A DNA stretch of 62,946 nt, counting the filler. It is 17 parts of 17 records of this genome, joined end to end, with 100 filler letters (N's around TTAATTAATTAA, not from the genome) between each part and the next. Parts side by side here need not be neighbours in the genome. Positions count along the whole stretch, not along the records: positions 47,465 to 50,969 come from SRR7504441_125089; 16 more parts are not named here. One strand, given 5' to 3'. The position numbers were made by a program, and so were the translations under genes. Below, piece after piece: positions 3,174-62,800 of this stretch (position 1 is the first letter of the stretch; each line of letters starts with the position of its first letter). A model generated the notes under the pieces. It was not told the origin of the DNA. It saw only the letters and a program-made list of their open reading frames with translations, and ran no database searches.

Positions 3174-6100
3174 TACAGATACCCAAGTGTTACCACACGT
3201 AAGCAAGCACTTTGCAGAAGTTGCCCTTCTCCTGCTGTCTACATTTGTACTCAAGGCCTTCTTCAGAGGCTTCTCAATCGATCTCGACATCTTTGCATCG
3301 GCAGGGAGCAAAATTGATGTCCCTCCTTGTAATTTAGCCGAAGCAGTCAGCCCCTTATACCGAGGCTTGTTCAGGGTGAGCAGCTCTGATATTGCCACAC
3401 CAGCTTGTGCGGCAATTGATTGCAATGTATCATCATCACGGGCTGAGTACTCTTTGACATCCTCGTCCTCATCCTGCATCTTGCCTTTCTTGGACGCATC
3501 TCTGTCAATCCGGGTGAAGTTGTCCTTTTTGAAGGCGGGCGGTTTCGAGCCAGACTTGGATTTATTCGACCCTTTGTCCTGATCTAGCTGGTCGAGCAGG
3601 AGCTCGTACTCAAACTTCAAATCTCTGTACCTGTTATGGTCATCCTTGGCCATGCAAACATACTGTGCCTTTGCTGTAAATGAGAGGTCATTCCACATTT
3701 GCACTTGTAATTTTTCAAGGTCTTGAGCGCTCATGCCACTATGGCTCTGCGCTATCAACTTATGGTGCTGTTGCAACCAGAATTTGTAAGCTGGCCTCGG
3801 CCGCTCTGGCGGTTTGGGTTTGGCAGCTTCTCTAGCTGCTTCTTCGCGCTTCTCTTCCTCTTCAAGCAAGGTAAGACTATCAAAGGCATGCCGCGGTATG
3901 AGCAGCTCAGTCCCTTCCTGTAAGCGAGCATTTCCGTTAAGCCCTTCATAGCGGCCGCGATTGATCTCAAACAACTCTTTGAACTTCATGCCTAGTTTAA
4001 CAGAGATTTCTTTCAGTGTTTCGTCATCTCGTGCTGAATACAGGTATGGAAGGCGGAGTGCTGTCCCAGCCCTCAGCCGTGCATTCATGGTTAGCCCTTG
4101 CAGATGCTCTTGACCCTTATTGATAGTAAGCAGGTCGCTGACATCAATCCCTGTCTTGTCTGCGATCTGACGGGCAGTTTCGTTCTCCTCTGCTATGTAA
4201 TTTGCACCAGCAGGATCAACGCCTCGAACTGTTGTACCAGGATCCGGTCTTGCACCTTTGCCAGTCAAGTTGCTGATGCTTGAACCAATCTCTTTGCCTG
4301 CAGCCACAAGTAGCTCTGTTTTATCTTTCAGGCGGGCATGCGCCTGAAGCCCTTTATGTCGCCGACGATTGAAGCGCACAAGTTCCTTGGGATCTAAGTC
4401 CAGTTTCTTTCCTATTGTTTGCAACGTCTCGTTCTCTTCAGCAACGTATATGTATGGCAGCAGCAGTTCCGTACCAGCCATCAATTGGGCACCCGCTGAT
4501 ATACCCTTGAAACGCGTTGCATTCATATCAAGCAAGTCTTGAACTTCAACCCCCAGCTCCACAGCAATCTTTGATGGTACTTCATTGTCCTCTGCAATGT
4601 ATACCCCTCGGCGGCGTTGCACAATCTGGCCTTTTGCTGGAGGAATCACAATTTCGGAGTTTTTCTTCAGCCTGGTGTCTTTGCGGAGGCCACTGTGATG
4701 CATCTCATTGATTGCAAGTAAGTGCTCGACGTCTAATTTCCTTTCTCGAGCGATCTGCAACAATGTCGTGCTTTTATCAATTGTTGTGATCCTTTCTAAG
4801 AGCACTTCGCCTTGTGGTATGCGCACCTCAGTACCCCGGCTCAATTGAGTTCCTTGGTAGAACCCATCAAATCTAGCTAGATTGACCGCAATTAAGCTAA
4901 CAATGTCCACATCAAGCTTTTGCGCAATAGCCACTGGAGTCTCTTTGTCTTGTGCATCATACCGGTCCAGGAATTCACTCTGATCTGGCCCATCCTGTTC
5001 TGCTTCTTGGATTGCCATTGCATCTTGTCCGGTTGGATCAAAATCATTGGGCTTACTGGGTGTTTCAGTTGCCTCCTCATCATCAAGTCCAGCATCAGCG
5101 TTATCAGCTACCATACCATCCGCCGGCTTGCTCCCAACTGCACAAACAGTCCAATATAAAAAGGCGCAAACACAGATGCTACTACCAGGCTTGCTCCAGT
5201 GTAGATCTGGCATGTCAAGTCCGGCCAGCTGGCAGGCCGCTTGATATACATTGCCCTGAGTGCCTGCTGTGAGTGTTACCAGCAGCAGTGCGTGCACCTC
5301 GACAGAACTCGGAGTGACAAAGCCGATCAGTTGAGCAAACTGTTGAGAGAACTGCGCACCTGGGGGCAGTACGTGCGCTCAAATTCGCGCCAGGCTCGCG
5401 CGCCATCAGGCAGAGCACACCGAGCTTAAGTTCTGATGCAACGATATCTGAGGCTTTCCGGGATTTCTGTGCTGTCGCTAGTCGCGTGAGCACTTCGGCA
5501 TTGGCATTCAGAACCTGCTGCAGATCCTCCACCAGCGCAGCATTCCCACTGCCCGACCAGAATCAGCGGCCCGCACCAGACTGCAGCCAATGGGAGCGCA
5601 CCAGTGGGGCAGGTGTCCCAGGATATCGATGGTGGGTATGTTCGAGGGGTCGAACTCGTCTGGAGTGGGCACATGCAAAGGCAGTAGCCATCCCTGTGCC
5701 AGGTCAACCTACGCACAATCATTTACCCGTCGAGCTGCCACAATGCCTGCTCCTGCACAGCTGCAATCCGGACATCCGACTGCTCGTTGCCATGCAACAT
5801 TTCTACGATGACGGCCTTGGAAGTGGCCCCGCGCACGTTGGCTCGGTTCCATTTCTTCTTGCGAAGGTTCCAAACCTTGATCAGCGGGAAGCCAGTCCAT
5901 TGCTGCAATTCTTGCCACTCCACCGACAACTTGGGTGTCGGCACGATCCCGAGCCTCACGCTGCTGCGCGCCCCAAGGCGTTCCACGATCTCGGCGAACG
6001 GGATTTCGCACCGAAAGGCATCCGCTTTGGACTTTTCGCGCGTCAACCTGGCCTGGGGCAGCTGGATTGCCGCCGATTGCTTGTGCTGTTGCAGTAGCTG

Positions 6101-6600: not shown

Positions 6601-9600
6601 GATCCTGCATGTCCTCAAACACGATCAATTGCTGCTGGTCGCCAAATAGTGATCGAATGATACGTCCTACCAGCAAAACCACGGAGCCATACAGAAACAC
6701 CAACCCTCCACTCCCCTGTGGCCAAAGCCTTGAGTCGCATCTTGGGCATGGTTAGTACCTCGATGAGAGCGACAAAACCACTGAGGCTATCTTCGGTAAA
6801 GACAGGCAGGTAGGGCCACACCCACTCTCCGCTACTTGGATCGGTGGCATTTGGAAGAAACTGTTGGACTTGCCACCAGCTGCCGCACCTGCCAACTAAC
6901 CTCAGCATTTAGACAGAACAAGGCTTACCAGCCTGCTGAAAGGTACTGAGACCTGAGCGTCAAGAGGATATCGCAGAAGCCCCCCTCCCTGCATCTGCCA
7001 ACACGCGCTTTCCCAACTTCTTTGTCGCGAGGCAGCACAACATCATCGGAATTGGCGTCGGCGACACGAATGCTGTTTGTGCTGGTCCAAACCTTGCCTG
7101 TGGATTCGAGCGCGGTGCAGTTTATCTGCTCCCACTCGTTCACAATCTGTAGTATATCCTGCACACATTTCAATTCCAGTCTGTTCCCTTCGGGTACCAA
7201 ACAATTCACCGGCGACAATAAGCCCTTTGTATGGCCATTTGACGCCTTGTCATGTGACGCCGCGTCATTGATATACACGTTTACATCTGCACTGTCAGAG
7301 TTTTTGACCAACCTGAAGGGCACAGGAAAACATAAATCGCAGCACAGGTCAATAGTCTCACCAGTAACGGAGATCCATGGAACCCGTACCAGCGCCACTT
7401 GCACAATAGTGAAGCATTGTTTTGAGCATCGCCAGCTGAGGTGGAGTCGGATCCCATGTGAAGGAAGAGTTGGAATCGAATTGCAGGCATTGGAAGTTGT
7501 AACTGGCATGCCAATGGTCAGCATGGGGCTCAGAATGCGGCCTCACAGGGATGACGAGTGCGAGCTATTGGATTTCAGATCCGTGCACCGATTTGGATCT
7601 GCCACAGCCAGCATCTGTGGAGTTTGCCAGAGATGAGCAGTTAGTGTTTGCCGGCTGCCAGCCTCCATGAATAGCATTCGTAGCGAAGCGAACGACAATA
7701 CAACGCTATTCGACTCCGAGTTTGGGAATGCACCCGAGAATATAAACAACGGGCCCCACAAGCACAGAACCAGGCCCACTACGATAGAGGCCCCGGCCAA
7801 TAGCTTAAACCACAGCTCTTGAGAGTCGCCTTCTTTTCGACCACTGCGGGCTGCGTCTCTCTCCATAGCCCGATTTTGACGATTGAGGAATAACTGCCGA
7901 TTAATGTCCTCTAGTTTGAACCTGCCATCCATTAAACAAGAGCCAGTACATCCAATCGCACCATTCGAAGAAAGTGAGGGCCGTTCCTATGCACACCCAG
8001 TCCAGAAGTACTCGAATCTCAAATAAAAAGGGGCACAGTGAGTATAGTGTGAACCCAATCAATTTGAAGAACGAGACCTTTTCATTTGCGGTAATATCTC
8101 CAGGTTCATATTTGGTCCAGAAATTCTCGTGCGTCAACATTGTGTACCCGTAGCACACTTGCACCGCCGAGTAGTACCAGTACACGCACTTAAAGAGAAA
8201 GTACATAATGACCACAAACGAGTGGAGCTGCATTGGGGGTCGGTACAAGAGGACAGTTAGGGTCAGCGAGACGGAAGTCAAAAGATGCACCACCTTTCCT
8301 GGTATCCAATTAAGACAGTAGATGATGCGGTCCAGCATCATCATAAAGAACTGCACGAGTAGAATAAAGAACAAATCAGTAGTCAAGTAATCCGCAAGAT
8401 TATCGCTGCCATCGTGGTGAGACGCTCCCTCTGGGTTCTGGGACTCGCTTAGAATCATGTAGAGAAGACTCCAAAAGAATGCCAAGAAGTCCCAAGAAAA
8501 CATCGAAATATAACAGTCTACGCCCCTCAGGCTCTTGCACGAAACGTGCAGACTCAGCGCACGCAGGCAATTGTCTGAGACGCTATTCCATGTCCTCCGC
8601 GTGCCTCGCCTTTTAGGAGCCAGTCTCTTGTCACCCCAGGTGCCAAAGAAAAACATCCAGACCTCCAGCAGCAAGCTGTATTGATGCATGCACTTGAAGA
8701 AGCTCAGCTTACACGAGCCTGGCGCACGGCTCATTTTCAGCTCTTTGGGCGGGATCTGTTGAACCGGGCCCTGAAACCAGGCCTGGTAACCTTCGCCTGG
8801 GGCAGAGTCAGCAATTGAAACTTCTAGAGGGGAAATCGTTGAAGGGAGGTCTTTCTCGACGCGCAGTTTGAACGATCGAAGCAGCTCTTGAAATTCAGCC
8901 AATTTTTCCAGGCGCGTACAGAGATCGCTTTTGCTTGCAATTGCTTCCTCGCAGGCTTCCGGCATATCATCCTCGATAGAAGGCCTCGCAACAACTTCCA
9001 CTCTATTGTCCAGATTGAAGGCTTCCAGCACATCCCTGCATAAATCCTTGACTTGCACAGTGTCCAATGTTTCAGGTGTCACGTAAATAACAAAGGTCAG
9101 TTCCTGGTCTTGGCTATCAACTCTGACTGATGCCTGGTCGACACCTTGAAGTTCTACAACGTCGCGCTCGACAATCTGGCCCGCCTGTCCAAGCAGTGCT
9201 GCCCGAGCCACGTCTACGTCAGCAATTAGGTCTTGTAATGCTGTCTTGATTTTCTCTTTTACAGGCTCCTCGCGCGGTGCCTCGACGCTGCAGACACGCC
9301 GCTTGATCTGCGACAGAAGCGAATCGCTGAGAAGCTTTTCGATGCGTGAACCAATCAAATAATAGTACACGGTCCAGTTGCTTGAACCACTCAGTAAGCA
9401 GTCCACCATCTGAGACAGCGTGTTTCGGAACTCAAACGTGTACAAGTCTTCTAAGTCTTCCACCAGCAGCGACAATACGGACACGTCCTCACTCTCTGAT
9501 CGGACCCCCTCTTGTGTTCTTTCGTCTTGCTGATCGAGCAATTCGAATGCATGACAGAGAGATTCCAATGGAGAATCATACACATCGTGCACCTGGCCAT

Positions 9601-11037
9601 AGTGCCGTCGCTGATCCTTGTGAATGCCCAGCAGAGTGAACAGTATTACCGGAATGAAAAGGTACCAGAATGCATCATCGCCGGAAGAGTTTTTGGCAAC
9701 GCCTAAAAGCACAGGCCAGGACTTGTATGGGCGAACACCGCGCCTGTCGGACCCAGAACTGTCATATGGTCGGGCACAAACGTAACAAACATCGCTGAGA
9801 AACTGATCATTGCTGGGCACAGAAGCGTCTTTGGCACAGAAGCCCTCCCTAGTTTCTGGCAAGGCAGAGTTGGAGCATTGCAACGTTTGGTAAGACGTAG
9901 CACAGAGGCCGCTAGTGTCAACATTGGTCACGAATAAAGGCATCGAAATAGACAAGACCACGACGCAGTAAATTATCAGATAAACGATGATGGCATTCCA
10001 TGCAGCTGGTGAGAGCCTCGGCCGCTGGGTCAACCCAAAGAGGATCAGGCAAGAGGTAAGAATGAGAGTAATGACACCCCCAGTAACTCCATGTTGTAGG
10101 CAAATGAAGAACAGAATGGACTTGCCGATTGTATCGAAAATGCTCTCCCACCAATGTCCCCTTTCATTTTGCACCAAGCGTTGCTTATCCTCTGGGCTGT
10201 AATCTTTCCAGGCAGAGCCAACGCTTTTACTCGCCCTGTGAAGATCCGAGGAATATCTGAACGCCATCCCATCGGCAGTGCGGAGCCAATTCAGAAAGGA
10301 GCCCCCGACTTCTGACAGCCAATTTTGACAGCCGCCTTCTTTCAACGTGTCTGTGCTGTCAGCTGGTCCGTCGAGTTGCTCACCGCTGCCTTGCGACGAG
10401 ACATCCCCCTTTAGCTGTATCTCCCCGGGCTGGCCTGTTGCGGCCAGTTGCTCACAGCTGCCTTGCGACGAGACATCTGCATACAATCTCATGTTGGAAA
10501 GGTTAGACTCTAGAAAAGCAATTTACCTGAAGCGTCGGATTCGTCAGGCTGTTGTTCCTTTGGAGCTGAATCTCGCAACATCAAAGAGTCCGATACCTTT
10601 TCCAATAAAGCCTGGTGGCGCTCTTTTGACTTGTCAAACACCGCTGCGTGCAGAAAATTTAGGAAAAGGCGCTTGAGACTGCTTGCAGGCTAATTTAGCG
10701 CACCTTGCAGATCTCGTACCCGTCGCATGCTGTATATGATGGCACCCAGATAGCGCCGGATCTGGCCAAGCCAGCACAGGGTAAGGCGGGAATCAAAGAG
10801 GCACTGTTACCGCCTTGACTGGGCCGACGTTCTTCTCATAGTGTGCTGTGTACTCCCAGGACGGAGATCGATCAACAAAGGAATCGTGAAGCTGGCAGAG
10901 GACAAAAATGACAATAGGGCCACCGGGCACTCTTTCGTTGTTCTTCTCGGGGTAATAGTGGCTCAAATTGGAGAGAATGCAGCCATCCGCGTTGCTCGCT
11001 GCCCTGGTTTCAGGATTGAAAGAGTTGTATGACAGCA
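6601..11037 (-). CDS. PIEZO: Piezo-type mechanosensitive ion channel, C-terminal part (truncated both ends)
   Basis: Anchor/outer-helix signature CPFLFEIRVLLDWVCIGTALTFFEW|FKLEDI (40-nt intron 7922-7961 restores it), FFMMMLDRIIY, LWGPLFIFS, cap region, and VGRIIRSLFGDQQQLIVFEDMQD at the contig edge. Confidence 0.9.
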
Positions 11038-14229: not shown

Positions 14230-14569
14230 CGGCCCCCTGTCGCTGACGTGAAACGGCGTCCTTCTCTGTTCGGATTGATGCCAGTCTCATTTTGGTCATT
14301 TGGCCCGTCAGATCACACATCACGCACGGGGCACTCCTCGAGGAACAACATGGTGAGTGAGCCGCCCGCAGGCTCTGTCCGGCCGGCTGACGAGTNNNNN
14401 NNNNNNNNNNNNNNNNNNNNNNNNNNNNNNNNNNNNNNNTTAATTAATTAANNNNNNNNNNNNNNNNNNNNNNNNNNNNNNNNNNNNNNNNNNNNCGCTT
14501 CCGTTGGAAAGGGAGTACTAGAGCACAAGTACGGTACTACGGAATTGAATTCGATTTGCAATATTTTCG

Positions 14570-17144
14570 ATGGCGACTAGGCGACAATCTGCGCTGGGCA
14601 ATCTGAGCCACTCTGGAGCCAACTCCCGAGCATCGATCGGCGCCCCCAGACTGGCAGCACAGAAAGGCGCAAAGACCCCCGGCCGGGCCAGCACCAGTGG
14701 CAGACGATCGTCTATCTTGAAGCGACCGTCGAATATCGGAGGCCGCAAGTCGATGCTCCCAGCCAAGAGTCCACTGCTCAAGCCCCGCTCATCCTCGATT
14801 TACTCTGGGCGTGGATCATCAGCTTTCCTCGATGGCCCCAAGAAGGACACCAGGCCGATCAAGGACAAGCAATGGCAGATGGAGCAGGCCGAAAGCCTGA
14901 TCGAGTTTCTGATCGCTGCGAATTACAACCATCACATCTCGCCCAAAATTCTCATGGCACCGACGCGGAAGGACTTTGAGTGCATCTTTCAATTTCTGTA
15001 CCGCATTATCGACCCGCACATGGAATTTTCCAGCAAGTTTGAGGACGATGTAATCCTCATCTTCAAGCGGCTGCGGTCCCTGCTGCCGGTGGCTGAGCAC
15101 TGAAGTCGAGTGCCGGCAGGTATCCATTTGAGGTGAAGAAAAGTGCGCTACACGCTGTCGGCAGCCCTCAGTATTGGCCTTCGCTCCTTGCTGCGCTGTC
15201 GTGGCTGTTGGAGACCATCAAGGTATTCCCTGCTGGCACTGTGGATTTAACGACTGTACAAGCCACGTGTGAGTATTACAGCTAAACCCCTGTGCTTACT
15301 GGCAGTATGCTATTGCTGCGGAGCGCGACTCTGGATCCTCTGATTTTGGATGCGACGATGATCCGAATCAGGACGACGGTGAAAAGCTGACTTACCAGGT
15401 GACTGCTAATTACCTTCACTGATCACAGTCCGCTACAGTATCTGCAGAGCGCGTATAGATCTTTCCTTGCTGGGGAAGACGAACAAGCGGTTGATGAATT
15501 CTTCGGCCCGCACTACGGTGATCTGCTGTAGATGAGGCTCACTTTGAATTTGGAACAGCCGAGAAGCAGCGTTTGATTTCCGAGGAGATTGCTCGGCTGC
15601 AGAACGAAAAGCAACAGCTCGACGCACAGATGTCGACGTTGCAATCTGGCGAGGTTCTCTGCGCCACTTAATAGATAGTGTGCCTGTATACTGGTTGCTA
15701 CAACTGCCCCGGCTCTGATTGCTTTGCCTAATCAGTCCTTGGTGGGCTCAATCACTCTGCGTCGGAACGACTTTGTGAGCGACGTGGATAAGTTCAGAAA
15801 ATACATCGGTCAGCTTCGGGAAAGGAAAGCTTACCTTCAGGAATCTAAGATGAAACTGGAGAGCGAGGAATCCTCTTGTGGTGAGACATTCCACTGTCGG
15901 CAGCTGTTCGTATCTTGCATATTAACGCTTGTTTTCTTTTTGGCAGATGTAGAGCTTCAGCACTTACAGGGACAGAAGCAAGCACTCATGTTGCAGATAA
16001 ATTGTCAGAAGGTATTTTCACAACGGGAAGTGACAGCAACATTGGACAGGTCAGTGCTGCAGATGTACAGGACATGAACATCGAACGCGCCAAGCGTAGT
16101 GATGCACTCCGCACCGTGAATGCAGCTGTTGATCATTTGACAGAGAAGATCTATGAGGTGTTGCGCGTTGATTTGTCCAACCTAGGCCTAGCATAGCTAG
16201 AATGCCGCGGCACTTGTCTGACTGGTGGTCAGGCCGCTGGTGTCGTTACCAACCATGTGGAACAAATCACCGAGGACGTTAACCTATTCAATCATGTGCC
16301 TACGCCATCTCACAGTATGACTATTGAGCCGATGTGCACAGCGCGGAAGTGAGCTAAAAGTTCTGCCGGCACATGCCAAGTATGCAAATGGTACGGAGCT
16401 GCAGCTCGCAGTTGCCTCTGTAGGCTCCGAAGATGAGGGTAATGTGAACCTGGACCTGAAATCATACATGAAGGTGCAGGCAATATGATGCGCTTATGCT
16501 CACACTCTGTTGTGAAATGTATGCAGCCAGCTCTGAAGCAACTCAAGGAACTTCATAACAGTAAGTGCCATCAAGCATGTGAAGACCTCATCACTCTCAA
16601 GGTATCTATCTCACTGCCCTGAATGTTGAACAGTGTCAACCATGTGCTGCCGATGCTCAGGGTCAGTCAACCTTTGCTGATGACGGCTGCAGGATCAGTT
16701 CAATCAAATTGATGATCGTGTCTGCGAGAAGGAGGCTATTGTTGATGAGACGCGGAGTATGATACAAAGGATCGAACTCGAGGCCAAATCTGCCAAGGAC
16801 GAGGAGGAGAAAGTCGATAGCCTTCACCAGAGCAGGGCATCAGTTGAGGCTGAGATTGCTCGAATCAAGGAGGCACATGAAAAACAAGTCAGCACCCTCC
16901 AAAGAGAAATTGATGATGCAAAGACACAGTGACCTTTGGCACACTTGCTGAAGCCTCACTTGCTGTTTTTTACAGGTATGAACACATGAAATCTGAGTAT
17001 GCAATGGAGAACAGTGACATCGAACAAAACCTGAGACGATTCCTGGACCAAGTGACTGATCACAAGATGTACATTCACAACAACTTGCGCCAAATTGAGC
17101 GCCACACCACTCAACTCCGGCAGCAAGTGGAGGATTCATTGTAG
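14570..17144 (+). CDS. NDC80: Kinetochore protein Ndc80/HEC1, multi-exon
   Basis: Basic Ser/Arg N-tail. CH domain DTRPIKDKQWQ...LMAPTRKDFECIFQFLYRIIDP...FKRLR|YPFEVKKSALHAVGSPQYWPSLLAALSWL (44-nt intron 15076-15119). Long coiled coil to TAG at 17144. Confidence 0.93.
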
Positions 17145-17349
17145 ATCTAGAGATGTGTCATTGTTCTGGGATGAGAAGGTAATGAGAAGGTGCCTTGGAA
17201 GTACTCCTGGAAAATTGTCCAGAGGACCATTTTGAGGGGGTTTCGAGAACTTCATACGCAGTAAAAGACCCTAGGAAACTGCAGTTTTTGAACTTCTCAA
17301 GAGCTCAAGCATGTTCTTTACATGTACACTTACACTGAACCAACCAACA

Positions 17350-17382
17350 TTACAACGAACTCACAACGAACTTACAACGAAC
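17350..17382 (+). repeat. Short tandem repeat, 3 x 11 bp (TYACAACGAAC)
   Basis: TTACAACGAAC TCACAACGAAC TTACAACGAAC in AT-rich DNA downstream of NDC80. Confidence 0.8.
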
Positions 17383-17604
17383 TAACATTATTATAACAAA
17401 ATTATAACATATTAAATAATGCTAGCTACGATCCATGCAGAAGTTCTTGAGATCGTGTTTGGCTGTGTCAATTGCCTGAGTTCTACTTATAAATAAACCA
17501 GATTNNNNNNNNNNNNNNNNNNNNNNNNNNNNNNNNNNNNNNNNNNNNTTAATTAATTAANNNNNNNNNNNNNNNNNNNNNNNNNNNNNNNNNNNNNNNN
17601 NNNN

Positions 17605-33738: not shown

Positions 33739-33771
33739 GCTCCGGAGTAGCTCCGGAGTAGCTCCGGAGCA
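33739..33771 (+). repeat. Short tandem repeat, 3 x 11 bp GCTCCGGAG(T/C)A with palindromic core CTCCGGAG
   Basis: GCTCCGGAGTA GCTCCGGAGTA GCTCCGGAGCA. Confidence 0.8.
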
Positions 33772-44428: not shown

Positions 44429-45908
44429 ATGGGGGCCATGTGGTGGAGCCTGGCGGTGGCGGCGGCCCTGCTGGGGGTCGGCCAGGGACTTCCGGACCTG
44501 GTGGGCCGGCCAGCTTGCTAGACTCAGCCGGTGCAGCACCAGGCGTCCGGCAGCATGAGCCCGGCCAACACCGAGTTTGTGGCCCTCAAGGCAGGCTACC
44601 AAGACGCCGACGCCGACCGCTCCGACCAGCCTCTGGGCGAGAGCAACCAGGCCGGGGCCGGGACGGTGCGCTCTGCCACCCCACTCGCTGATCCGGCCGG
44701 CAGGGCATGTCGCTCGGAATGCTCCGGTCGTTTCTACGGGGCGTTCAGGGGCCTCAAGGCAACCGCGGACCGCCAGGCCGGCCAGGCCGGGGGATGCGTG
44801 GCCCGGCCGGAGAGAGGGGCGAACGCGGGCTCCAAGGGCCGCTTGGGGCCACCGGGGCTGCGGGCCCCGCCGGCGTAGAGGGCAAGCCTGGAGCTGTCGG
44901 ACCTGCTGGTCCCGAAGGCGAGAAGGGCGAGAGGGGGGCACCGGGTGGAAAGGGAGAAGTCGGACCCGCCGGACCTCGTGGCAAATCAATTGTTGGGCCA
45001 CGCGGTAAGCGTCCGGCGCGCTAACTCCTGAGGCGCTTGGACAGGTGTGGACGGTCCTCAGGGCCTGCAGGGCAGCCAAGGTCCTCCTGGACTGGCTGGC
45101 AAGGCAGCGCACACTGGTGCTCGAGGTCCACCGGGCAAACTTGGCCCGCAGGGCTTCCCAGGAGAGCCGGGCACGCCGGGAGAGGCTGGGATCGCTGGAC
45201 CCCGGGGCCCTCGCGGTCTGGCTGGACGCAAAGGCAATGCTGGAGCTCGAGGTCTCGAGGGTAGGCGTGGTCTTCCAGGCATTGCAGGAAAGTTGGGCCC
45301 TATTGGTGCAACTGGAGCCCGCGGCCATCCCGGTCAGAGGGGCAAAGTTGGCGCACAGGGCCCGTCCGGTCCTCGCGGCCTCAAAGGCCCTGCAGGCGAC
45401 AACAACTGCAAGACAAACTCCCAAATCGACGAGCAAGAAATGTGCACTGGATCTGGAGCGTCCAAAAAGTGTACCAAGTTTAAGGTGGGTAGTACCTGTG
45501 TGCGGCTCGAGATGCTGACTGCGTTACCTTCTGCAGGTCCCTGTGAAACACGTCAGCTGTGGCAACTCTGACACACCATTAAAGTGGGGGATCAATGCGG
45601 CGCCCACAGCGGAGTTGACCGTGAATGGAAAGATTCATTCTTCTGGAGCTGTCCATGCTCAGACCCTAATGGTTCCGAAGCCCAAGGCACGCCTGGGCGA
45701 ATCTCAAGAAATGTCTACTGATGCGTTTGCTAAGCTGCTCCAATCCGATTCGATTGATGTAGGAGCCCTAGCAATCGAGCTCCACAAGCAAGTTCACCAT
45801 CACAAGAACAAGATCGACCGCCTCGAAGGTCTAGTTGCAAAACAAACAGCAATTCTTCAAAGCCTTGCTGCCGAGTTCCGCCAGACGCAAAACAAGAATG
45901 ACGAGTAG
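44429..45908 (+). CDS. Secreted collagen triple-helix (Gly-X-Y) protein with C-terminal non-collagenous/coiled-coil region
   Basis: Signal peptide [20 protein letters not shown]. About 65 Gly-X-Y triplets with three short interruptions (44737-45402), kept in register by a 40-nt intron (45005-45044, CTAAC branch site). Cys cluster and a terminal coiled coil. Confidence 0.85.
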
Positions 45909-47364: not shown

Positions 47365-47961
47365 NNNNNNNNNNNNNNNNNNNNNNNNNNNNNNNNNNNN
47401 NNNNNNNNTTAATTAATTAANNNNNNNNNNNNNNNNNNNNNNNNNNNNNNNNNNNNNNNNNNNNTCCGGAAGACCATTATAGGGGGTGGTGCAGCCACTG
47501 TGTGATGCCCGAATCGCCGCTAGAAGTTCTGGACTCGTGCATATTTCCGTTATAAATAAGCGGCTCAATCGTGCAGTTTGTGCTCATGCACGCCCGGCGG
47601 AGGGGACCTATTGATATGTGGCGAGGCCAAACACCTCGTGCACGAAGTCTAGGAGCCTTGCCTGCAAGCGGAGCGAAGCTTGGGGTGCTCGTCAAGTACG
47701 AATTCAGCAACTTTTATCCGATTCAGCAGACAATCTGACGACAGGCGGAGTCGTGAGGCTTGCAGAACTCGTCAAGCACACGCCCAACGGCGGTCATGAT
47801 TGGGCTAAAGGTGTCGAGACTCCAGGACAATGGCCCTATCACCCGGGAGACCCTCTATCTTGTCCCTATATGCCTCTATTATTTAAGCGCCAATCTGATC
47901 TAATTATTTCGTTTTGGACTCCATCGATTATTACGGCGTTTGGCTTGCTATTAGCCGAGGA

Positions 47962-50647
47962 CTATTTACATTTGGCCTTGCCATGTTTGTTCGCCTTGGC
48001 CTCGTATCTCTCGATGGCTTCGGCCGAGGTTTGTAGGTTTTCTTCAGGCTCCCACGTCAGCCGGTCATCACCCTTCCATTTCACCTGGTACTCGGTCTTC
48101 CTGTTTCTGCCACGGCCGCTAGTCCGCTTGTCCAGAATCGCCTGGACCACAAACTTGGTATCCGAGCGCTCCCCACCTACCATGGCATCCTCCAAGTGCG
48201 AGCGGTCAACCTTGGGCGCGGCTGCCTTCCTGGCAGGCTTCGCACTGTGCCCGAGCGCCTTGCGGGTTGCAGTGAAATCAGCCATGTTCATTGGCCAGAT
48301 GTGACTCAGCGTCTGTGCTCGCAGCTTCCTTGAAAGGGTCTTATCCCGCCCGGCGTCTTGCGACGACGCGTTCTTGATCAGCTTGGCTTCAAACTCGCAG
48401 TAGGCGTTGCCCACCGGGAGGTACTGGTAGTTGAGCTCGAGCAGGTTCCACAACGGCTTGCAGACCTTGCTGTCCCGAATATCAGCACCGTCGAGAGCCA
48501 CAGCCTCCACCCCACGCCAATACTCGTCGTCATACAGCACCTGCAGCACGCCGATATACCGCTCGGAGCGCACATGCTTCTCTAATTCTCGGGTTGAGAA
48601 GCTGTAGCTCTTGGCGGCTCGGTGGCGTAGCGTGTCTTGGCCCGCGTCAGTCAATGTGCGAGCAAACTGCGACACCAATCACACTCAAGTAATCAGCCAA
48701 TAGTAGTCCTCAGCTAGCGCCCTCACCTTCTTTGCACGCTGGCGGTCCTCGGCAGCAAGCTGAGCCAAACTAAAGACGAGATTGGTCCGGATAACCTCAG
48801 TATTGAGCTCGCTGTGCTCTCGAAATGTCTGACAGAAACTCTGCACCTTCCACACTAGTTCCTGCTCATCCAGGTCGTGCCGGGCCGCGAACGAGTCGCT
48901 GCACCCCGCTATCTTCAGACCCTTAAGCCACTTCTTAATCTCTCTCTCCGTTTGCAGCTTCTCCATCGTCTCGTCGGTCCTATCGAGTTGGTCATGCAGC
49001 TTATACCAAAGCCCACCAGCCCAGTCAGTGGCAGTGTCCGCCTCAGCCCACTTTACGAACGGCACAATGTGAGCCTTACCCAACTCCTTCACCACCGCAA
49101 TCAAGCACCTGAGCATCGGGTCTAGAGCCTGCTTGCAAAAGTCGCGGAGCGCCTCATCCTTGATCTGGTGCAAGTGCTGATCCATTGGCGCGTAGAAGTG
49201 CCGGTCGACCTGCCGCGCATTCTCGCCGTCCACAGCCTCCTGGAGGTAGTACTCCACGATTGCTGTAATCACATCTGGTGTCAGCGGGTCCAAATAGTCC
49301 GCCAACGAGACAGCAAAAATCCAATCCGCATCACACAAGCCAGGTGGCATCTTCAAGCCCAGATGCTTGCGTAGACCATCGTCAGTCCGGAGCAGGTGGT
49401 TGACATCCTCAAGCATGCCGGAGACTTGATGGCGCTTCTCCGTCTTGCTCCCTTCAGCCTTGGCTTTCCTATCCCTGGAGTGTGCTAATGAGGCACGCCC
49501 TAGAGGCTCGGACATGTTGTCCATCGCGTGTTTCAGCCCATTGGCACAACGGTGGCACTGGCAATTCAAGTGTGTAATCAACGGTGCATCGAGGCGCAGG
49601 TGCTCACGACAGGCCTTGGGGTTCGTGCTGGCATCGTCACCAATAAAGTAGGCTGGGTCGTTGGGGCAGTCTTGCAGCACTGATTCCCGATACAACGGGC
49701 CGATCACAGCGGCGCTCTTCTTCTCGCCGTCCTTATTTGGTTTCAACCTGATGGCATGCTTGCAGCACCGGAACCTCGGCTCAGTCGAGTATGAGTGGTA
49801 TGCAGCCGGCGCTGACTCCTTGACCACACCGAGCACCATCGTCCCGAGGAAGGACCAACCCGGGCTGCCTGAGCGCGTTACCTCGTCTCCACCGACTGCG
49901 AGCACGATCACATGTCGCTTGACCGCCTCCCATTGCCAATGCTCGATCTGTACATCGTGGCGGTTGGCGGATGTAGCCGAGGCTTGTTGCCGCTGCACCT
50001 CTGCGCAATTGCGTCGGCGATCCGCAGCATGCCTTGGCCCGCGTGGCCCGGTGGAAGCTTTAGAGACTTCTTCCGGAGCGTCTCTGGGTCTCTGAGTGCG
50101 CACACAAACTGGGCTGCTGGCACATACTGGAACTCCAGAGGCGGTGCTTCAAACTGAGGAACCAGCGCCGACCGAGGAGCATCTCCGCCGCTGTCTGGGG
50201 GGCGGGGTGTGCGCTGAGGACGGTCAGCCGGTGTTTTGACCACACTCCCGGCCGACCTGAGCGCAGGCGGGTGGGGTAGCTTGAACTCGGGCTGGGGCTT
50301 GCCAGGTGCGGCTGATTTCGACCTGGGCGTCTTGAGCGGCGGTTCAGTGGTCAGTCCGGGCCTTAGCACCCGGTTGGAGCTCCTGAGGGCGGGGGTTTCG
50401 TCTCTAGCGCGCTTTACGCTCGCTTTGTTGGCCTCGCTGCGCCCGGTACGATAGCACTGTCCGCACACAGCCCGCTGCCTCTTGCCCCGGCCTGTGTGGG
50501 GACTCACCACCTCACCACACTGCGGGCAGGCTTCCGCTGGGTCCTGGGCGTCTGCCGACACAGCGCTCGCTCAGTGGACCGGCTCACACCGCGCACGCCA
50601 GGCAGGACACTAGAATTGGCCCGTGGCACGCCCACTGTTGGCAGCAT
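47962..50647 (-). CDS. hAT-like DDE transposase with N-terminal CxxC-CxxC finger and C-terminal chromodomain
   Basis: D1 GGDEVT (49885-87), D2 FIGDDASTNPKA (49633-38), CQCH (49552-63), DADW (TRW position), and LPVGNAYCEFE (E at 48394-96). Chromodomain FVVQAILDKR...EYQVKWKGDDRLTWEPEENL (about 48000-48153). The 60-nt GT-AG intron 48667-48726 joins the frames. Start codon uncertain. Confidence 0.72.
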
Positions 50648-50956
50648 TCAGCCGGCACAACCCAAACGCCCCCAGCGTGGTATCACGTGTCAGACTGGCC
50701 GCCAGCCAGCCCGGCAGCGCCCGGAACCAGTGGTGGTGCCATATGTAGCGGCGGTACGCACCCATCAGCCGAACGAGCGGGAATCAGGGGGGTCGGGCGT
50801 GAATCACACCTTGTGCGGGACTCCCGATAGCACCGTCGGATCCGCGCCTGCGCTTCTTGCCCATGCGGCCCCGAGCAGCCGACGAGACCCCTTGGACGGG
50901 ACAGGCACGCCGGGGCCTGCCCGACCGCCCGGACCTGCAGCCGAATGCTGCCAACA
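50636..50956. repeat. 14-bp perfect inverted repeat pair at the 5' end of the transposase gene
   Basis: TGTTGGCAGCATTC at 50636-50649 and GAATGCTGCCAACA at 50943-50956. Confidence 0.75.
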
Positions 50957-51069
50957 CCAGATTTTCGATNNNNNNNNNNNNNNNNNNNNNNNNNNNNNNN
51001 NNNNNNNNNNNNNTTAATTAATTAANNNNNNNNNNNNNNNNNNNNNNNNNNNNNNNNNNNNNNNNNNNN

Positions 51070-56203: not shown

Positions 56204-59200
56204 ATGGACCTCGATCTGGACAACCTCCCCGAGGGGGAGCAGGACGCCGCAGAGGTGGCGGCGGAGCAAAAGCGGCTGCGCCAGGAGGTGAATAACGCAC
56301 TGCGTCGACGCTTTCGCATCCCTGATGCTGACCTGCTGATGTGCAGACTACTGCTGACCCTGACAATCCAGAAACTGGCGTCGACGACGTCGCTGCGAAT
56401 GCGGCATCTCACACGCCACAGTCCGGGGCGCAGCTGGCTGTCGAAGGCGCAGACGTGGCTGCCCCAGCTGCGACAGCGACGCCGTCCGCTGCAGCAGCAG
56501 CAAACCCACCGGCTCAGAGCGCTAGCGGCGCCGCAGGAGGACACTCCCGAGCCGGATCCCAGGTGAGGCCCCTCCCCCCTGCTGTCACCCTGTGCCCCTG
56601 TGTGCACCCTACAGCCTCTGCAATGATTTCTGTGGACGAGCGTGTGCTGTGGTGTAGAACTCCGCGGGGCAACGAGCACCACGACTGCAAGTGACAGATA
56701 TCCTGCAAGTTCTTGCTCGCCTGCTCTCCAAATCCCAGTGGGAAACAGTGCAGGCACTCGTAAGAAAGTGGCGAAAAACGGTAAGTCCCCACCCTCCACC
56801 CCGCACCTCGCGATCTCCTTTTGTACTTGCTACTGAATCACCAACTGCATTACCCTTCTGTGTCACTGTTCAGTCACTTTGCCACTTGCTTTACTCACCT
56901 GTCGATTTTTTCCAGGAGCGGCCCTCTTCTGATAACAACAAGCGAAGCTTCATCTCTGTAAGCCCCCTCCCCCCCGAGTGCGACCAGTGCTGTGCTGTCT
57001 ATGGCTGTCGCTAACTACGGTGCTACAGGACCTCCGGGATGTGGTTGGGACGGACCTGTGGCGTGATACCATCCTCGAAATACAGAAAAGTAATTCGGGC
57101 GGGCCCAATTCTGGGGTGCGCTTTGGGCTCGGTTCTGTCTCTGACCCATTGCAGGCCGGAAGCTCCAATGTTGCAAGTGGCGCCACAGCATCTCCTTGTG
57201 AGCCATCCTTCATGTGACTCTTGAATGAGCGCTCCCCGTGTGTGTAGCAACTCCTGTTGTGGCGCTCCAGACTACCAAGTCGCTGCCCTTACAGCCAAGT
57301 GCTGATGCTAAAGCCCAAGCACCGCCCGCTACTGAGAATGCTACCTTGCAACCCCCAGTCAAAGTTGAAAAATCAGGTGACCCCTCACCATTGAGCCTCG
57401 GAATAATGCTTGGGCCTGATCTTCCATCAAGCTATCTGTAGCGGCGTTCACGCGAAGCTGTAGGTGAGAACACAACAGCGAGTGCAGAGCATAAGCGGAC
57501 CCCTTCAGTGCGAGAAGTGATCAATGCTGTGAAATGGCTTGTGACAGCAGATCAGCATGCCACGCTAGACATGCTATCCAACCAGTACGTAAAAAATCAG
57601 ATCACACAAATCCAGGTATTTCTTATCCTAAGTCTGTTCTTAGCAGACACCGATTTGTCACCATCCACTACTACTGAGCATTGTCCTAACCAGTGGTCTG
57701 GCTGCAGCTCGAGGCCCGCTTGAAAGGAATGGTTGGCCATGATGGCTTGATGCGAGCTTTCACGTTGGCCACCAAAAACCTGGGTGCTGCTCCATCGAAA
57801 GGTGCTGGGTTTGCTCAAGACTGACTCTAAGCACTGGGCAGGGCCAGACTCTGCGAGTACACAACCGGCCAAGATTGCACAAACCTCCTCAACTCCTCAA
57901 ACAGATTCAAAGCCAGTCACCCAGGTAAAAGATGCAGGAGTGCCGACTCCAACAGATGTGAGTGCGTCTGTCAAAGCCGAACTCAAGGCTTGCGTCCCAA
58001 CTACACCTGCTGCAGCACCAGGCGCAGCAGTGACTGCAGCAGGATCAAATGGGTCCAATGCTATGGCGATCCAGCCAAGTGGAACCCCAGGAGGATCTGG
58101 ATCTGTTAGCAAGACCCAGCAAGTGGCATCACAGGTGGGTTCACAACATGTTTGAGGCTTGAGCGCTGTTGTATGTCCAGGCAAAGCACATAGTAGCCCA
58201 TGCATATCATTGCCGGGATAATAGTTGCTCGGTCCCAAAGTGTTTTGAAACCAAATGCAAGCTGCTGCAGGTGCTGTCCCGTAGTTTCAAAGCTAAGGCA
58301 CAGCTCGGTCCTAAACTCCTGCTGGCAGTTGGCGCGGCATCATGAAAAATGCAGTAACTTTCCTCAGACTCAAGATACTACGTGCAAACTCTGCCGCATG
58401 TGGAACTATGTGAAGAACATGCCTGGTGGACAGCAGCAGTCCACTCCCAGCCAATCTCTGTAAGCATTCCTTGCCTGCTAAGAGGTTGATATATTTCTGA
58501 GCATTTGTGTGCCAGGCCATCAAATCAAACCGCAGTTGCACAGAGGAAGGGTCATGCAACAAAGCGCAAAGCAGCTGATCAAGAAAAAATCAAGCAAGCT
58601 CTCCGAGTGAAGCTCCGCGAGCACTTCAGACGATGTCCTGGATGCAGTCAGTGTGAAAAATGGCAAGAGCAGTTGCGCAAGGTGAAAGAGAAGCAACGAT
58701 TGCAAGAACAGGGGGCTGCAGCAGAAGCAGCCAAGCCAACGAGCGGGAAGAGGAGGACACCAAAGAGGCCACGCAAGCCAGATGCAAAGCAACAAAGGCT
58801 CGAGGGACTTGCTTTTGAGGAAGGCGACTGGGTTACCATAAAGCCCAAGAAAGGCAACACCCCTGGTAGACTTGCAAGAGTGATGCAAATAGACAACAAA
58901 GTGCAAGTGGAATTCGTAGCCCGATTGGGTGACTGCATAGATTCTACTCCAACCCCGTTGAATACTGCAAAGGTGGTTTTATCCTTCGAGCTGGTTGATC
59001 CTGCCCAGCATTCGATTCAGAGGCTTGGTAAAGTGCCATCTTATCTGGAGTATCCAGATATTGAACCCCCTCGCTTACAAGAGAATTTCTATGTGGACTA
59101 TCGGAGTTATGGTGATACAAGCCAGGATGGGTGGTGGCCTGCGCAAGTGATTGCCGAGGGTTCAGTTTATACAGTAAAACTTGAAGCAGAAAAGCTCAAA

Positions 59201-59757
59201 GATGAGCTTCGGAGTAGAAAACTGTCAAAGGAAGAGGAATACAGTTTAGCTGCTGAGGCTGGTAGAAAAGCGGCAACCTTGGGAGCAGAAGGTGAGGCTG
59301 AAACCCAGGTGAACATCAAGCGCAAGGTGAGACGAGAGCAATTGCGGATAGTCTGTGGACACAAGGACTGCAGACAGCGGCAGCTTCGCTTCGAGCTTCC
59401 ACAGATGTGGTGTATCGACTGTACTATGCCTGTGAGATACCCAGGATCGACGTTTTATATTGCCGCGAATGATACACTTGCTGCTGATGGGAAACTTGGA
59501 CCAAGTGGTCCTGTGCAAACATTATGCAAGGATTGTTACAAAAGGGCTGAGAAAGGACAGAGATCCCACCGGGGAGGAATGGTGGTGAAACTGAATCTCG
59601 CAGCCATGAAAGAAGTCACAATGCCAAAAGAAGGACAAGAGGGTACAGGCACTGACATAGGGTAATTTTCATCTTGCCATTTGGTAATGTTATAGTTCTA
59701 ATTCCTTTTTGTTGCCAGGTACAACATTGGGGAGCTGTTGCCTTGGATCCAGTGCTC
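56204..59757 (+). CDS. CBP/p300 (KAT3/HAC)-like chromatin protein, N-terminal part (HAT domain beyond the contig end)
   Basis: TAZ-like H-xxx-C...CxxC fingers (HHEKC...CKLC; EHFRRCPGCSQC) and Tudor/Agenet-like DGWWPAQVI. VCG...LRFELPQMWCIDC..PVR...FY...LCKDCY...PWIQC matches the RING-to-PHD region preceding the p300 HAT domain. Confidence 0.6.
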
Positions 59758-59857: not shown

Positions 59858-62800
59858 GTACAAGACAGGATCTGTGATGTAATAGCTCGAGTTCTGAACC
59901 TGGCCAGCGTGAGTTCTTCAGCCGGGTTCTTCCACCTGGGCGGCGACTCAGTCACAGCAATTCGGGTCTGTTCGATCGCGAGGCAGCGGGGGATCATTTT
60001 CACTGTACGCGACCTGCTGATCTGCCAGACCGCTGCTCAACTCGCTCTTCACGCCAAGGTATCACTGATGAGTAACGACGTGAATCGTGGAGAGGACGCC
60101 TTGGTCGAAGGTGACGTGGCGCTGACACCGATTCAGCAGTGGTTCTTCCAACATCAGTTCTCTGCAGCTGATCACTGGAATCAAGCAATTTCGCTGAGCT
60201 GCGGTGCTTCGGTGGATCCCTCGAGACTAAAGGTGCGGCCCGTGCGCATGTAGGCGCTAACTTTCTGGGTCTGCCGCAGGCTGCACTGGCTCGCCTGCAA
60301 GATCACCATGACATGCTTCGATGCCGCTACAGGAATCAGCCAGATGGAAGCTACCGCCAGCTCATCCAGCCAAGCCACGCTACAGAGCTGCCTTCGCTTA
60401 CTGTCATTGAGCAGACTGCGGATGTTGAGCGGGCGCTCGACGATCTGCAGGGCAGCCTCAGCCTGTCTGACGGCCCTGTGTGGGCTGCAGCACTGGTCAG
60501 TGGGTCGCCTGACCGGGTTGTGCTCGTGTTCCATCACCTGGTTGTCGACGCGGTGTCCTGGAGAATCATTGAAGAGGATCTCGGACACGCCTACGCTGCC
60601 CGGCGGCTACCAGCCAAGAGCAGCTCGTTCCAAGCCTGGGCGACTGGCTTCAACCAGCACCTGCAGGCGCGACTTCCGTGGCATTCAGGCGCTGGCACGA
60701 CAGCGCCTCTGCCGATGCAAGTCCAGACTGTGAACCCTAGGCACCGGACCAGAGCACAGCAAGCATCAATCACCGTCAGGCTGAGCCCCAGAAAGAGCGC
60801 TCAGCTGCTCGCCGATGCCAACACCGCGCTCCGTACGCGGCCTCAGGAGTTGATGCTCGCTGCTCTTGCGCTGGCCTATGAGGAATGGTGTGGCGCGTCC
60901 CAGCTGGCAGTTGTACTCGAGGGGCACGGCCGGGAAGCTTTCGATGATACTATCGACGTGTCTCGTACTGTGGGCTGGTAAGGCCCTAGCCATGCCACTG
61001 TTTGCCTTATGGTTGGTTGTGCTCGGTGCAGGTTCACCGCCATGTGGGCTGTGCAGCTGCAAATCGGAGAGTGCAGTACCAGCAGCGATGCGTCTCTGCT
61101 GGAGGCAATCTGTGCCGTCAAGGAGCAGCTGCGTGCTGTGCCAAAGCATGTGCAGCAGTTCGGTGTGGACCCTGCAACCCTCGAGCCGGCCCAACTGGTG
61201 TTTAATTACCTCGGGAACTTCGGCAACGGCTCGAGCTCAGATAGCCCTTCTCGCGAGGAGGGCTTCCAGCTCGACTGTCAGCCTGTAGGTGAGTGCGTCT
61301 GCGCAGTAAACCATGCAACATCTGCTCTTGCTCTCAATGGGGCGATCAGAAACGGCCAACTGGAGATGGCTTGGAGTTTCAGCTCGCTCGAGTTCTCGAC
61401 CGACTCAATGCAACAATTTGCAGAGACCTGGGTGAGCATGCTCGGCAGAGTGATTACTGCTGGCTGTGCAGCTGATCCCAGGCGGAGCTCGCCTTCTGAC
61501 TTTCCGCTGTGCGGTTTGTCGCAGCAGCAGCTGGACAGTGTAATGACGAAGCTCCCAGAGGACCATACAGTCTCTAGCTTACTGAAGCTGACAGGGCTCC
61601 AGTCAGGGCTGGTAGCTGCGACTCTACTTCAACCAACGCAGTACGTCACGCAGATCCTGCGGACAGTCCATGGCAAGTTTGAAGTTTCACGATTGCGGAG
61701 GGCTTGGGAAATGGTTGCTCAGGTGCATGACGCCCTACGCACCAGGGTGGTCGTAGGTCAGCTGCCACACGCGGTCCAAGCCGTGCTGCAAGGCGCCGGA
61801 CCCTTTGTGGGCTGGCAGCACATAGATGCAAGTCAGCGTGGAGGCCGCATTCAGGAACTTGTGTATGAGATCTCGAGAGCGGAGAGGCAGAGCAGCTTCG
61901 CTTTCGAAGGCGAGCCTCTGATGGGAGTCAGTGTGATCTCCGGCCCGAGTGTAACCTATCTCATTGAGACCAATCACCACTGCATCCTGGACGGCTGGTC
62001 TGGGGCCATCTTGTTGCAAGACGTGCTTGGGTCGTATCGAGGGCAGACTGTCTCGGTTCCAGTGCCCTACCATCGCATCGTGGAGCGGATATTGTCCCAA
62101 GACACACGGGCACAACGCAAGTTTTGGACTGAGACATTAGATGGCTGCTGCTGCACAGAATTAGGCCTGCCCGAGCCTCCTGCTGGCGCAGAGTCCTCAA
62201 AACGCAGCGTACGCATCGAAGGTGTGCAATGTCACCATATTACAGCCGAGCTCGGGGTGAGCCTGGCAGCATTAGTGAATGCTGCCTGGGCCTTGGTGCT
62301 GCACTGCTGGAGCGGGCAAGCGACCGTGCTCTTCGGTATGGTAATGTCTGGACGCAGTGAAGGCTTTGAAAGTACAGTAGGTCTGCTAATCAACACCCTA
62401 CCCCTCGACGTTGAGGTCAATCGCACCAGCCGCGCGGGTGATTTGCTCAGAGCAGTGCAGCGACGCATGACCGATATGATACCTCACGAGACCACATCCC
62501 TCCAGGAGGTACAGCGGTGGACTGAGATCCGGCCTTTGTTTGAGACTTCGGTGGTGTTTGAGAACTTCCCAGACCTACAAGAGAAGGAGCCCGAGCCCTC
62601 ATTTCAGGTGGAATTCGTTGAAGCATTCGAGGAAGCGGATTTCATGGTGGGCTTGGCAGCACACAACAGAGACGCAGGACTGACACTGGAGATCCGCAAC
62701 AACGGTGAAAGGGTTAGCAGAGAAGATGCAGACATGCTGTTAGAGGCCACGAAGCATGCCGCTTCGTGGCTGCTTCTCTCTCACAACTGGGCCGAGCCGG

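Follow-up and report, generated by a model that had tools for sequence, protein, structure and literature searches.

A Likely Broken Copy of a Divergent hAT-Type Transposase Family with a C-Terminal Chromodomain in a Marine or Estuarine Metagenome

Introduction

A gene in which hAT-like catalytic motifs are followed by a chromodomain raises the question of whether it belongs to a mobile cut-and-paste element or to a transposase tamed by its host, and what the chromodomain might do there. The window, i.e., the whole stretch of DNA under analysis (62,946 nucleotides), is made up of 17 small contigs with N linkers between them. The gene lies on one contig of 3505 nt, with borders at about 300–500 nt from the gene. 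The runs containing this stretch are marine or estuarine metagenomes. Since the intron of the gene is of the spliceosomal type, the host is read as a eukaryote.

Gene Structure and the Intron

Two minus-strand frames (50148–48685 and 48678–47962) are in register on the contig, with two TGA codons between them. The features of the contig are collected in Table 1.

Table 1. Features of the transposase-bearing contig, with positions counted along the whole window.
Feature	Position	Strand	Basis or remark
Whole gene-bearing contig	47465–50969		Terminal inverted repeats not found within it
Possible first exon with the ATG of the initial annotation, speculative	50590–50647	−	Needs 1 of 7 candidate short introns, e.g., 50589–50552
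CxxC-x17-CxxC, possible zinc ribbon, N-terminal region	50454–50528	−	Sub-threshold Pfam zinc-ribbon matches, E ~0.06
Conserved N-terminal block; in the window copy its frame differs from that of the core	50004–50138	−	BLASTP to P0004
Likely internal deletion of 532 nt that shifts the frame	50003	−	X1 record 4 and X5 loose end; arithmetic
Exon: RNase-H-like core (D 49887, D 49635), CxxH (49563–49552), W (49323), most of the helical insertion	48727–50003	−	Model, structure search, alignment
GT-AG intron of 60 nt, two in-frame TGA inside	48667–48726	−	Splice signals; 20-residue gap in four relatives
Last exon: end of the insertion domain, E (48396), hAT-like C-terminal helices, basic linker, chromodomain, TAG stop	47962–48666	−	Model and alignment; RNA contigs (X7) cover part of it
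Chromodomain; cage F (48153), W (48078), third aromatic absent (D 48069)	47998–48153	−	Pfam, PDB matches, structure search, alignment
Non-coding stretch downstream, with several contigs that have diverged; may be a subterminal region that is repeated	47465–47710		Depth 13.9 vs. 7.5 in X1; weak

The true N-terminus is uncertain. The ATG at 50647, chosen by the initial annotation, would require a further intron of 38–98 nt, and the CxxC pairs of the N-terminal region have no counterpart in the relative P0004. An N-terminal BED zinc finger is common, though not universal, in hAT transposases; none was detected here by Pfam. Upstream of the gene, a 17-nt inverted pair (50636–50652/50940–50956, 94% complementary, 287 nt apart) may represent subterminal binding sites or chance.

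The intron carries a GTGAG donor, a CTGAT branch-like site and a CAG acceptor, and both TGA stops fall within it. Homology backs it as well, because four relatives (P0009, P0012, P0018 and P0020) show a gap of 20 residues exactly at this site. The intron had been proposed from the letters of the sequence, and it is borne out by these two lines of evidence. Decoding of TGA as Trp was ruled out, since the 20 residues in question are wholly missing from the relatives. In RNA run X7, contigs cover 48142–48303 and 48312–48638, and RNA run X8 covers 49109–49381, possibly through DNA carry-over; among the contigs of these two runs, none crosses the intron.

On other contigs of the window, several frames were judged by eye. 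A minus-strand frame of ~735 aa at 3174–5378 holds many LysM-like repeats around an HMG-box-like stretch, and collagen-like Gly-X-Y repeats run over several frames at 44586–45571 (+) on a neighbouring, unlinked contig. Further frames presumably represent a Piezo-like fragment (7901–10522, −), an NDC80-like N-terminus (14549–15103, +), the start of a CBP/p300-like acetyltransferase (58490–59665, +) and an NRPS condensation/epimerisation-like fragment (60172–60981, +). Another contig contains two repeats of the form '9 bp - TA - same 9 bp' (17171–17190 and 17364–17383), and a third such repeat at 33739 belongs to an 11-nt tandem array; shuffled sequences gave 0–3 matches of any 9-2-9 form. No 9-TA-9 repeat was found on the transposase contig, and nothing ties them to the transposase family.

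The Transposase Core

The motifs D, D, CxxH, W and E follow each other in this order, as the initial annotation had recognised, and alignment A4 confirms their conservation. In the rows covering each column, both D residues, C and W are present in 9/9, H in 8/9 and E in 17/18; these counts take in the query and near-identical rows, and P0011 and P0050 are misaligned at the E column. Both D residues, C, W and E are nearly invariant across the family.

The protein model was built from a 27-row alignment and is poor (pLDDT 56.6, pTM 0.39); a single-sequence AlphaFold2 model (pLDDT 34) was set aside. The model predicts RNase-H strands and an all-helical insertion at residues 157–527. The first D is placed on strand 1 (D39 in strand 31–42), the second D after strand 4 (D123 just past strand 118–120), and E on the helix following the insertion (E536 in helix 533–543). 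Residues 31–165 match integrase cores (Z 9.0, rmsd 3.9, 104 aligned). For the Atlas model of the relative P0045 (pTM 0.54), all ten listed neighbours are hAT clusters, with TM 0.40–0.53 over 384–513 residues; one neighbour was listed per family set among the 30 nearest, and both sides of the comparison are predicted structures. Atlas feature scores of 0.79–0.90 are of lead level only. Foldseek with the weak window model found nothing at E 0.001; Hermes was the best-placed transposase, at rank 9 (E 0.19, TM 0.15). Hermes is not among the best 50 rows of either VIA structure list, those rows being filled by chromodomains and integrases, so that its absence there carries no weight.

The motifs, the matches to integrase cores and the hAT neighbours of P0045 support the initial annotation in reading the core as an RNase-H-fold transposase of the hAT kind. 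The core is thus best described as a predicted RNase-H-fold DDE enzyme nearest to hAT. The Pfam hAT models (PF05699, PF04937 and PF14372) gave no match in 34 proteins (3 + 21 + 10) at E up to 1–5, and the upstream frame 50148–48685 had no Pfam match. Because this lack of a hAT match is taken as divergence, the family is filed as hAT-type by its motifs and predicted fold and not as a proven member; full membership would rest on short terminal inverted repeats and 8-bp target duplications.

It is very improbable that the core belongs to a different CxxH-bearing DDE superfamily (MULE, P or Kolobok) or to a new sister group. Such a placement would agree with the negative Pfam results for the hAT models and the BED finger, with the MULE-like ISCth4 obtained by Foldseek at E 0.25, and with two altered dipeptides. 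hAT transposases carry 'RW' and 'ER', whereas the family has DW in place of the former and, in all but P0013, EF or EY in place of the latter. The CxxH motif is also common to several superfamilies, according to the available part of PMC4763223. On the opposite side stand the structural neighbours of P0045, all hAT, and the feature matches, among which no other superfamily is named.

A Probable Lesion at Position 50003

The initial annotation held that the gene has no disabling stop once introns are removed. This does not agree with the comparison of the window copy with its relatives. The N-terminal block matches P0004 (BLASTP, 42% over 66 columns, E 2e-12), and so does the core from 50001 (59% over 178), but in the window copy the two lie in different frames. 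In P0004, they are separated by 168 residues, which are absent from the window copy.

Contigs of four runs were compared, namely, DNA runs X1 and X5 and RNA runs X7 and X8, the last two taken from 14 listed runs with shares under 0.1. A 2980-nt contig of X1 aligns to 50128–50003 and 50003–47681 and has 532 extra bases between the two segments. In X5, which belongs to another study, a contig departs from the window's sequence at this very base; when translated by hand, its loose end continues the frame of the core and is similar to the part of P0004 that immediately precedes the match. The remainder of 532 divided by 3 is 1, so that the extra bases bring the two frames into one and give 178 codons, compared with 168–170 residues in three relatives. 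Given these additional bases in X1, the window copy likely carries an internal deletion of this length with a frameshift. An intron bridging the frameshift was rejected; 27 GT..AG pairs could span it by chance, but each of them would remove sequence conserved in relatives.

An error of the window assembly at this point, with the gene intact in the organism, is less likely than a true deletion, and we consider it unlikely; it is a separate question, and its answer is compatible with the preferred explanation of the family. No contig of the four runs contains the short junction, and the longer form occurs in both DNA runs. Little decay is seen in the coding differences (see below), which would also suit an intact gene. 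Against this, the haplotype of the window copy is real, since two minor X1 contigs and both contigs of X8 match it without a single difference. A short-read error would not typically remove unique sequence cleanly at a single shared base, and relatives show the same kind of lesion.

Between the window and the long X1 piece, there are 22 differences, of which 8 are downstream, 1 is in the intron and 13 are coding (13 in 1977 coding nt vs. 8 in 281 nt downstream). Nine of the 13 coding differences are synonymous, compared with 22–27% expected (p 0.0004–0.002). Until recently, the transposase protein was subject to selection.

Relatives and Conservation of the Fusion

An exhaustive protein search with the core without its chromodomain as the query returned 20 proteins at E 0.001 or better. 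Word-indexed searches were nearly blind, giving only 1, 5 and 2 matches. One of the proteins, P0006, is the same locus as the window copy. Among the other 19 relatives, 10 reach the end of the core; the Pfam chromodomain is above the cut-off in 5 of these and weak in 1. It was not detected by Pfam in the remaining 4 (P0012, P0013, P0022 and P0024), where introns or truncation could hide it; three of them look like one lineage.

Two longer proteins, P0030 (836 aa) and P0045 (807 aa), were obtained from cluster look-ups for 10 of the proteins. Each is a single unbroken frame with D, D, CxxH, W, E and a Pfam Chromo match (E 1e-8 and 3e-9, respectively), and P0045 aligns with the window protein at 28% over 717 columns (E 7e-72). 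Because these proteins are full-length single frames, the fusion is real, forming one protein across the family, and not a product of a chimeric contig. The X1 contig runs continuously from 50003 to 47681, i.e., from the core through the chromodomain. A separate chromodomain gene or a chimeric contig was ruled out by these two observations.

The lineages are only 30–50% alike, and their distribution is patchy. A midpoint-rooted tree of 9 C-terminal pieces has two clades (100/98). In 6 lineages, the identities of the core tail and the chromodomain vary together (rho 0.57, reached in 24 of 720 permutations; kin share history). From this covariation, a single capture of the chromodomain with subsequent joint inheritance may be proposed; the fit is modest.

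The Chromodomain and Its Aromatic Cage

The in-frame chromodomain that the initial annotation had placed after the hAT-type core is confirmed by Pfam (PF00385, E 1.9e-11; score 44.1 bits, cut-off 25.1) and by the single frames of P0030 and P0045. Its best sequence matches in the PDB are CDY1, CDYL, CBX3 and HP1. Model residues 614–676 match chromodomains, including that of Oxpecker (Z 9.3, rmsd 2.1, 59 aligned).

The cage of the window copy reads F-W-D. The first two aromatic residues and the Asp in the third position had been noted earlier and stand in the alignment; a three-residue aromatic cage is absent. The cage is incomplete in 6/7 lineages, being complete (Y-W-F) only in P0023, which is truncated. 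In the clade of the window copy (P0010, P0014, P0021 and the window copy itself), the cage is F/Y-W-(D/S) and the loop is short, with only 4 residues between WKG and TWE. The other clade has L-W-F, or Y-W-F in P0023, and the chromodomains of P0030 and P0045 lack the first cage aromatic. All 12 rows have the central W, and the tryptophan of TWE is retained in 10 rows with full chromodomains. The net charge of the chromodomain ranges from −1 to +4 across the family, and the window copy has a basic loop. It was considered whether an acidic residue retunes the cage to lower methylation; this idea was dropped, as three relatives of the clade have Ser and not Asp.

Since the cage is incomplete in most lineages, the reading of a methyl-lysine mark on histones is an unproven candidate role for the window family, and the missing cage residues speak against trimethyl-lysine reading of the canonical kind. 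A full cage of three aromatics may be ancestral, as P0023 retains it.

The family could be mobile while its chromodomain neither reads methyl-lysine nor chooses targets, binding instead DNA or a protein partner or aiding escape from silencing. We regard this as doubtful, but it deserves attention. The losses of the third aromatic with the shortened loop in one clade and of the first aromatic in P0030 and P0045 would fit it, as would the range of net charge and the basic loop of the window copy. Evasion of host suppression was also proposed for such fusions by Grau-Bove et al. (bioRxiv 10.1101/2021.11.30.470311), in the available text. The retention of the central W and the TWE tryptophan and the complete cage of P0023 speak against it. 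Besides, plant group II chromodomains lack the first and third aromatics and yet show clade-specific chromosomal patterns, according to the available part of PMC3605345.

Mobile Element or Domesticated Gene

Internal deletions recur in the family. P0049, P0050 and P0053 each join the start of P0045 to a different downstream point, with 529, 686 and 567 residues missing, respectively; P0049 is 100% identical to P0045 on both sides of its deletion. P0048 combines the N-terminal part of P0015 with the tail of P0021, which represents an internal deletion in the P0015/P0021 lineage. Together with the window copy, this makes five deleted forms in three lineages, those of the four relatives being known from predicted proteins alone; they could be misassemblies or spliced transcripts. 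In maize, internally deleted derivatives are described mostly where Ac was recently active (PMC3260210, in the part available). The initial annotation had left the choice between a cut-and-paste element and a domesticated gene and had taken the copy as intact. Because internal deletions recur, a mobile family appears favoured over a domesticated gene; the intactness of the copy did not hold.

No terminal inverted repeats were found within the contig, and the ends of the element probably lie outside it. The contig and the metagenome, viral and prokaryote-genome collections showed no target duplication, no empty site and no further genomic copy, and scans of these collections for loci with the family proteins returned none. 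A stretch in the viral collection encodes a relative of P0045, with no locus returned; a contig classified as viral may therefore carry the family as well. The X1 depth is flat over the gene and higher over the last ~250 nt, and the copy number is probably low given the flat depth. An X5 contig is 88% alike over the 65 bases 47465–47529 and departs into other sequence at 47529; it is possibly a related repeat or a miniature derivative having the element's end in common. A 25-nt direct pair (76%) at 47675/47755 may be due to chance.

A domesticated transposase gene acting in host silencing or programmed rearrangement, as does Kat1, with the window copy as a null allele, is improbable, but several observations would agree with it. 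Purifying selection is seen between the variants, the gene has an intron, the flat depth of 7.5 suggests a low copy number, and no element ends were found in the contig. Catalytically active tamed hATs exist, as described in the available text of PMC4763223. On the other hand, five independent large internal deletions in three lineages would be unusual for a needed host gene, and the lineages are divergent and patchy. Active transposases are likewise under purifying selection.

Proposed Mechanism

At present, the window is best explained as containing a broken copy of a divergent, predicted hAT-type family, in which the chromodomain likely tethers the transposase complex to chromatin and steers insertion. 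The probability of this reading is put at about 0.55. By analogy with hAT biochemistry, an intact copy would bind the ends of the element. Excision would then proceed via hairpins on the flanks with the participation of CxxH and W, as in Hermes and Kat1, and the DDE triad would join the element to new DNA, giving a short target duplication. The window copy and other deleted forms may be non-autonomous derivatives moved in trans by intact copies, as in Ac/Ds. The chromodomain would contact target nucleosomes in the manner of chromoviral integrases such as MAGGY, probably not via the canonical three-aromatic cage for trimethyl-lysine.

A further extension is tentative, with odds clearly below even. 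The family would represent a recently active cut-and-paste clade of marine protists in which a chromodomain, acquired a single time and retained through deep divergence, serves to aim insertions at marked chromatin, making it a DNA-transposon counterpart of chromoviruses. Its two sub-clades would have remodelled the reading pocket differently.

Comparison with Known Systems

The family resembles hAT transposases (Hermes, PDB 4d1q/2bw3/8edg; Ac; DUF659, ZBED1 and ZMYM1-type clusters) in the order D, D, CxxH, W, long helical insertion, E and in the predicted fold. It differs from the superfamily in falling outside the Pfam hAT models, in the altered RW and ER dipeptides, in the BED finger, which was not found, and in the C-terminal chromodomain. 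With Ac/Ds it shares internally deleted derivatives (PMC3260210, available part). The roles of CxxH and the conserved W in hAT are treated in the available text of PMC4763223. The same text describes Kat1 of Kluyveromyces lactis, a domesticated active hAT that likewise has the CxxH and W motifs and an intact triad. Unlike the window family, whose deletion derivatives point to mobility, Kat1 is a single gene of its host that carries a BED finger, and that portion of the source mentions no chromodomain.

The combination of a hAT transposase and a chromodomain in one gene has a precedent. In the sponge Ephydatia muelleri, hAT fused to CBX- and CDY-type chromodomains is reported in a set of 823 gene models that combine TE and chromatin domains (Grau-Bove et al., bioRxiv 10.1101/2021.11.30.470311, main text). 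Because of these hAT-Chromo fusions, the novelty is lower than the initial annotation implied. By the main-text description, they are limited to one or few species and were found via Pfam TE domains, whereas the window family is invisible to Pfam and keeps its fusion across strongly diverged lineages. The literature searched on transposase-chromodomain fusions, in which subscription papers are thinly covered and Repbase falls outside, contained no description of the window family. Thus, a hAT-type family with a conserved C-terminal chromodomain is apparently undescribed.

Chromodomains occur on Maverick and several gypsy lineages, as far as the available texts describe. The integrases of chromoviral Ty3/gypsy elements (MAGGY; plant groups I and II) and of Maverick/Polinton elements similarly combine an RNase-H-fold DDE enzyme with a C-terminal chromodomain, and their cages are often incomplete, as in the window family (available parts of PMC3605345, PMC10799480 and PMC12477314). 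The cage losses of the window family, i.e., third only or first only, match neither group I nor group II as described there. Moreover, those enzymes are integrases of retrotransposons or self-synthesising elements, while the core of the window family has a hAT-type insertion domain. In the three long frames of the contig, no Pfam match to reverse transcriptase, gag or polymerase was obtained, and no long direct repeats (LTRs) were found.

Significance

Targeting guided by a chromodomain is documented for integrases of retrotransposons; the literature found on cut-and-paste transposases contains only gene-model fusions. P0045 and P0030 are natural single-frame proteins in which chromodomain targeting is testable. 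Surveys based on Pfam overlook whole transposase lineages. If the proposed reading is true, the family would offer a compact and naturally evolved means of directing hAT-type gene-delivery tools, and this targeting strategy would be convergent between two classes of mobile DNA.
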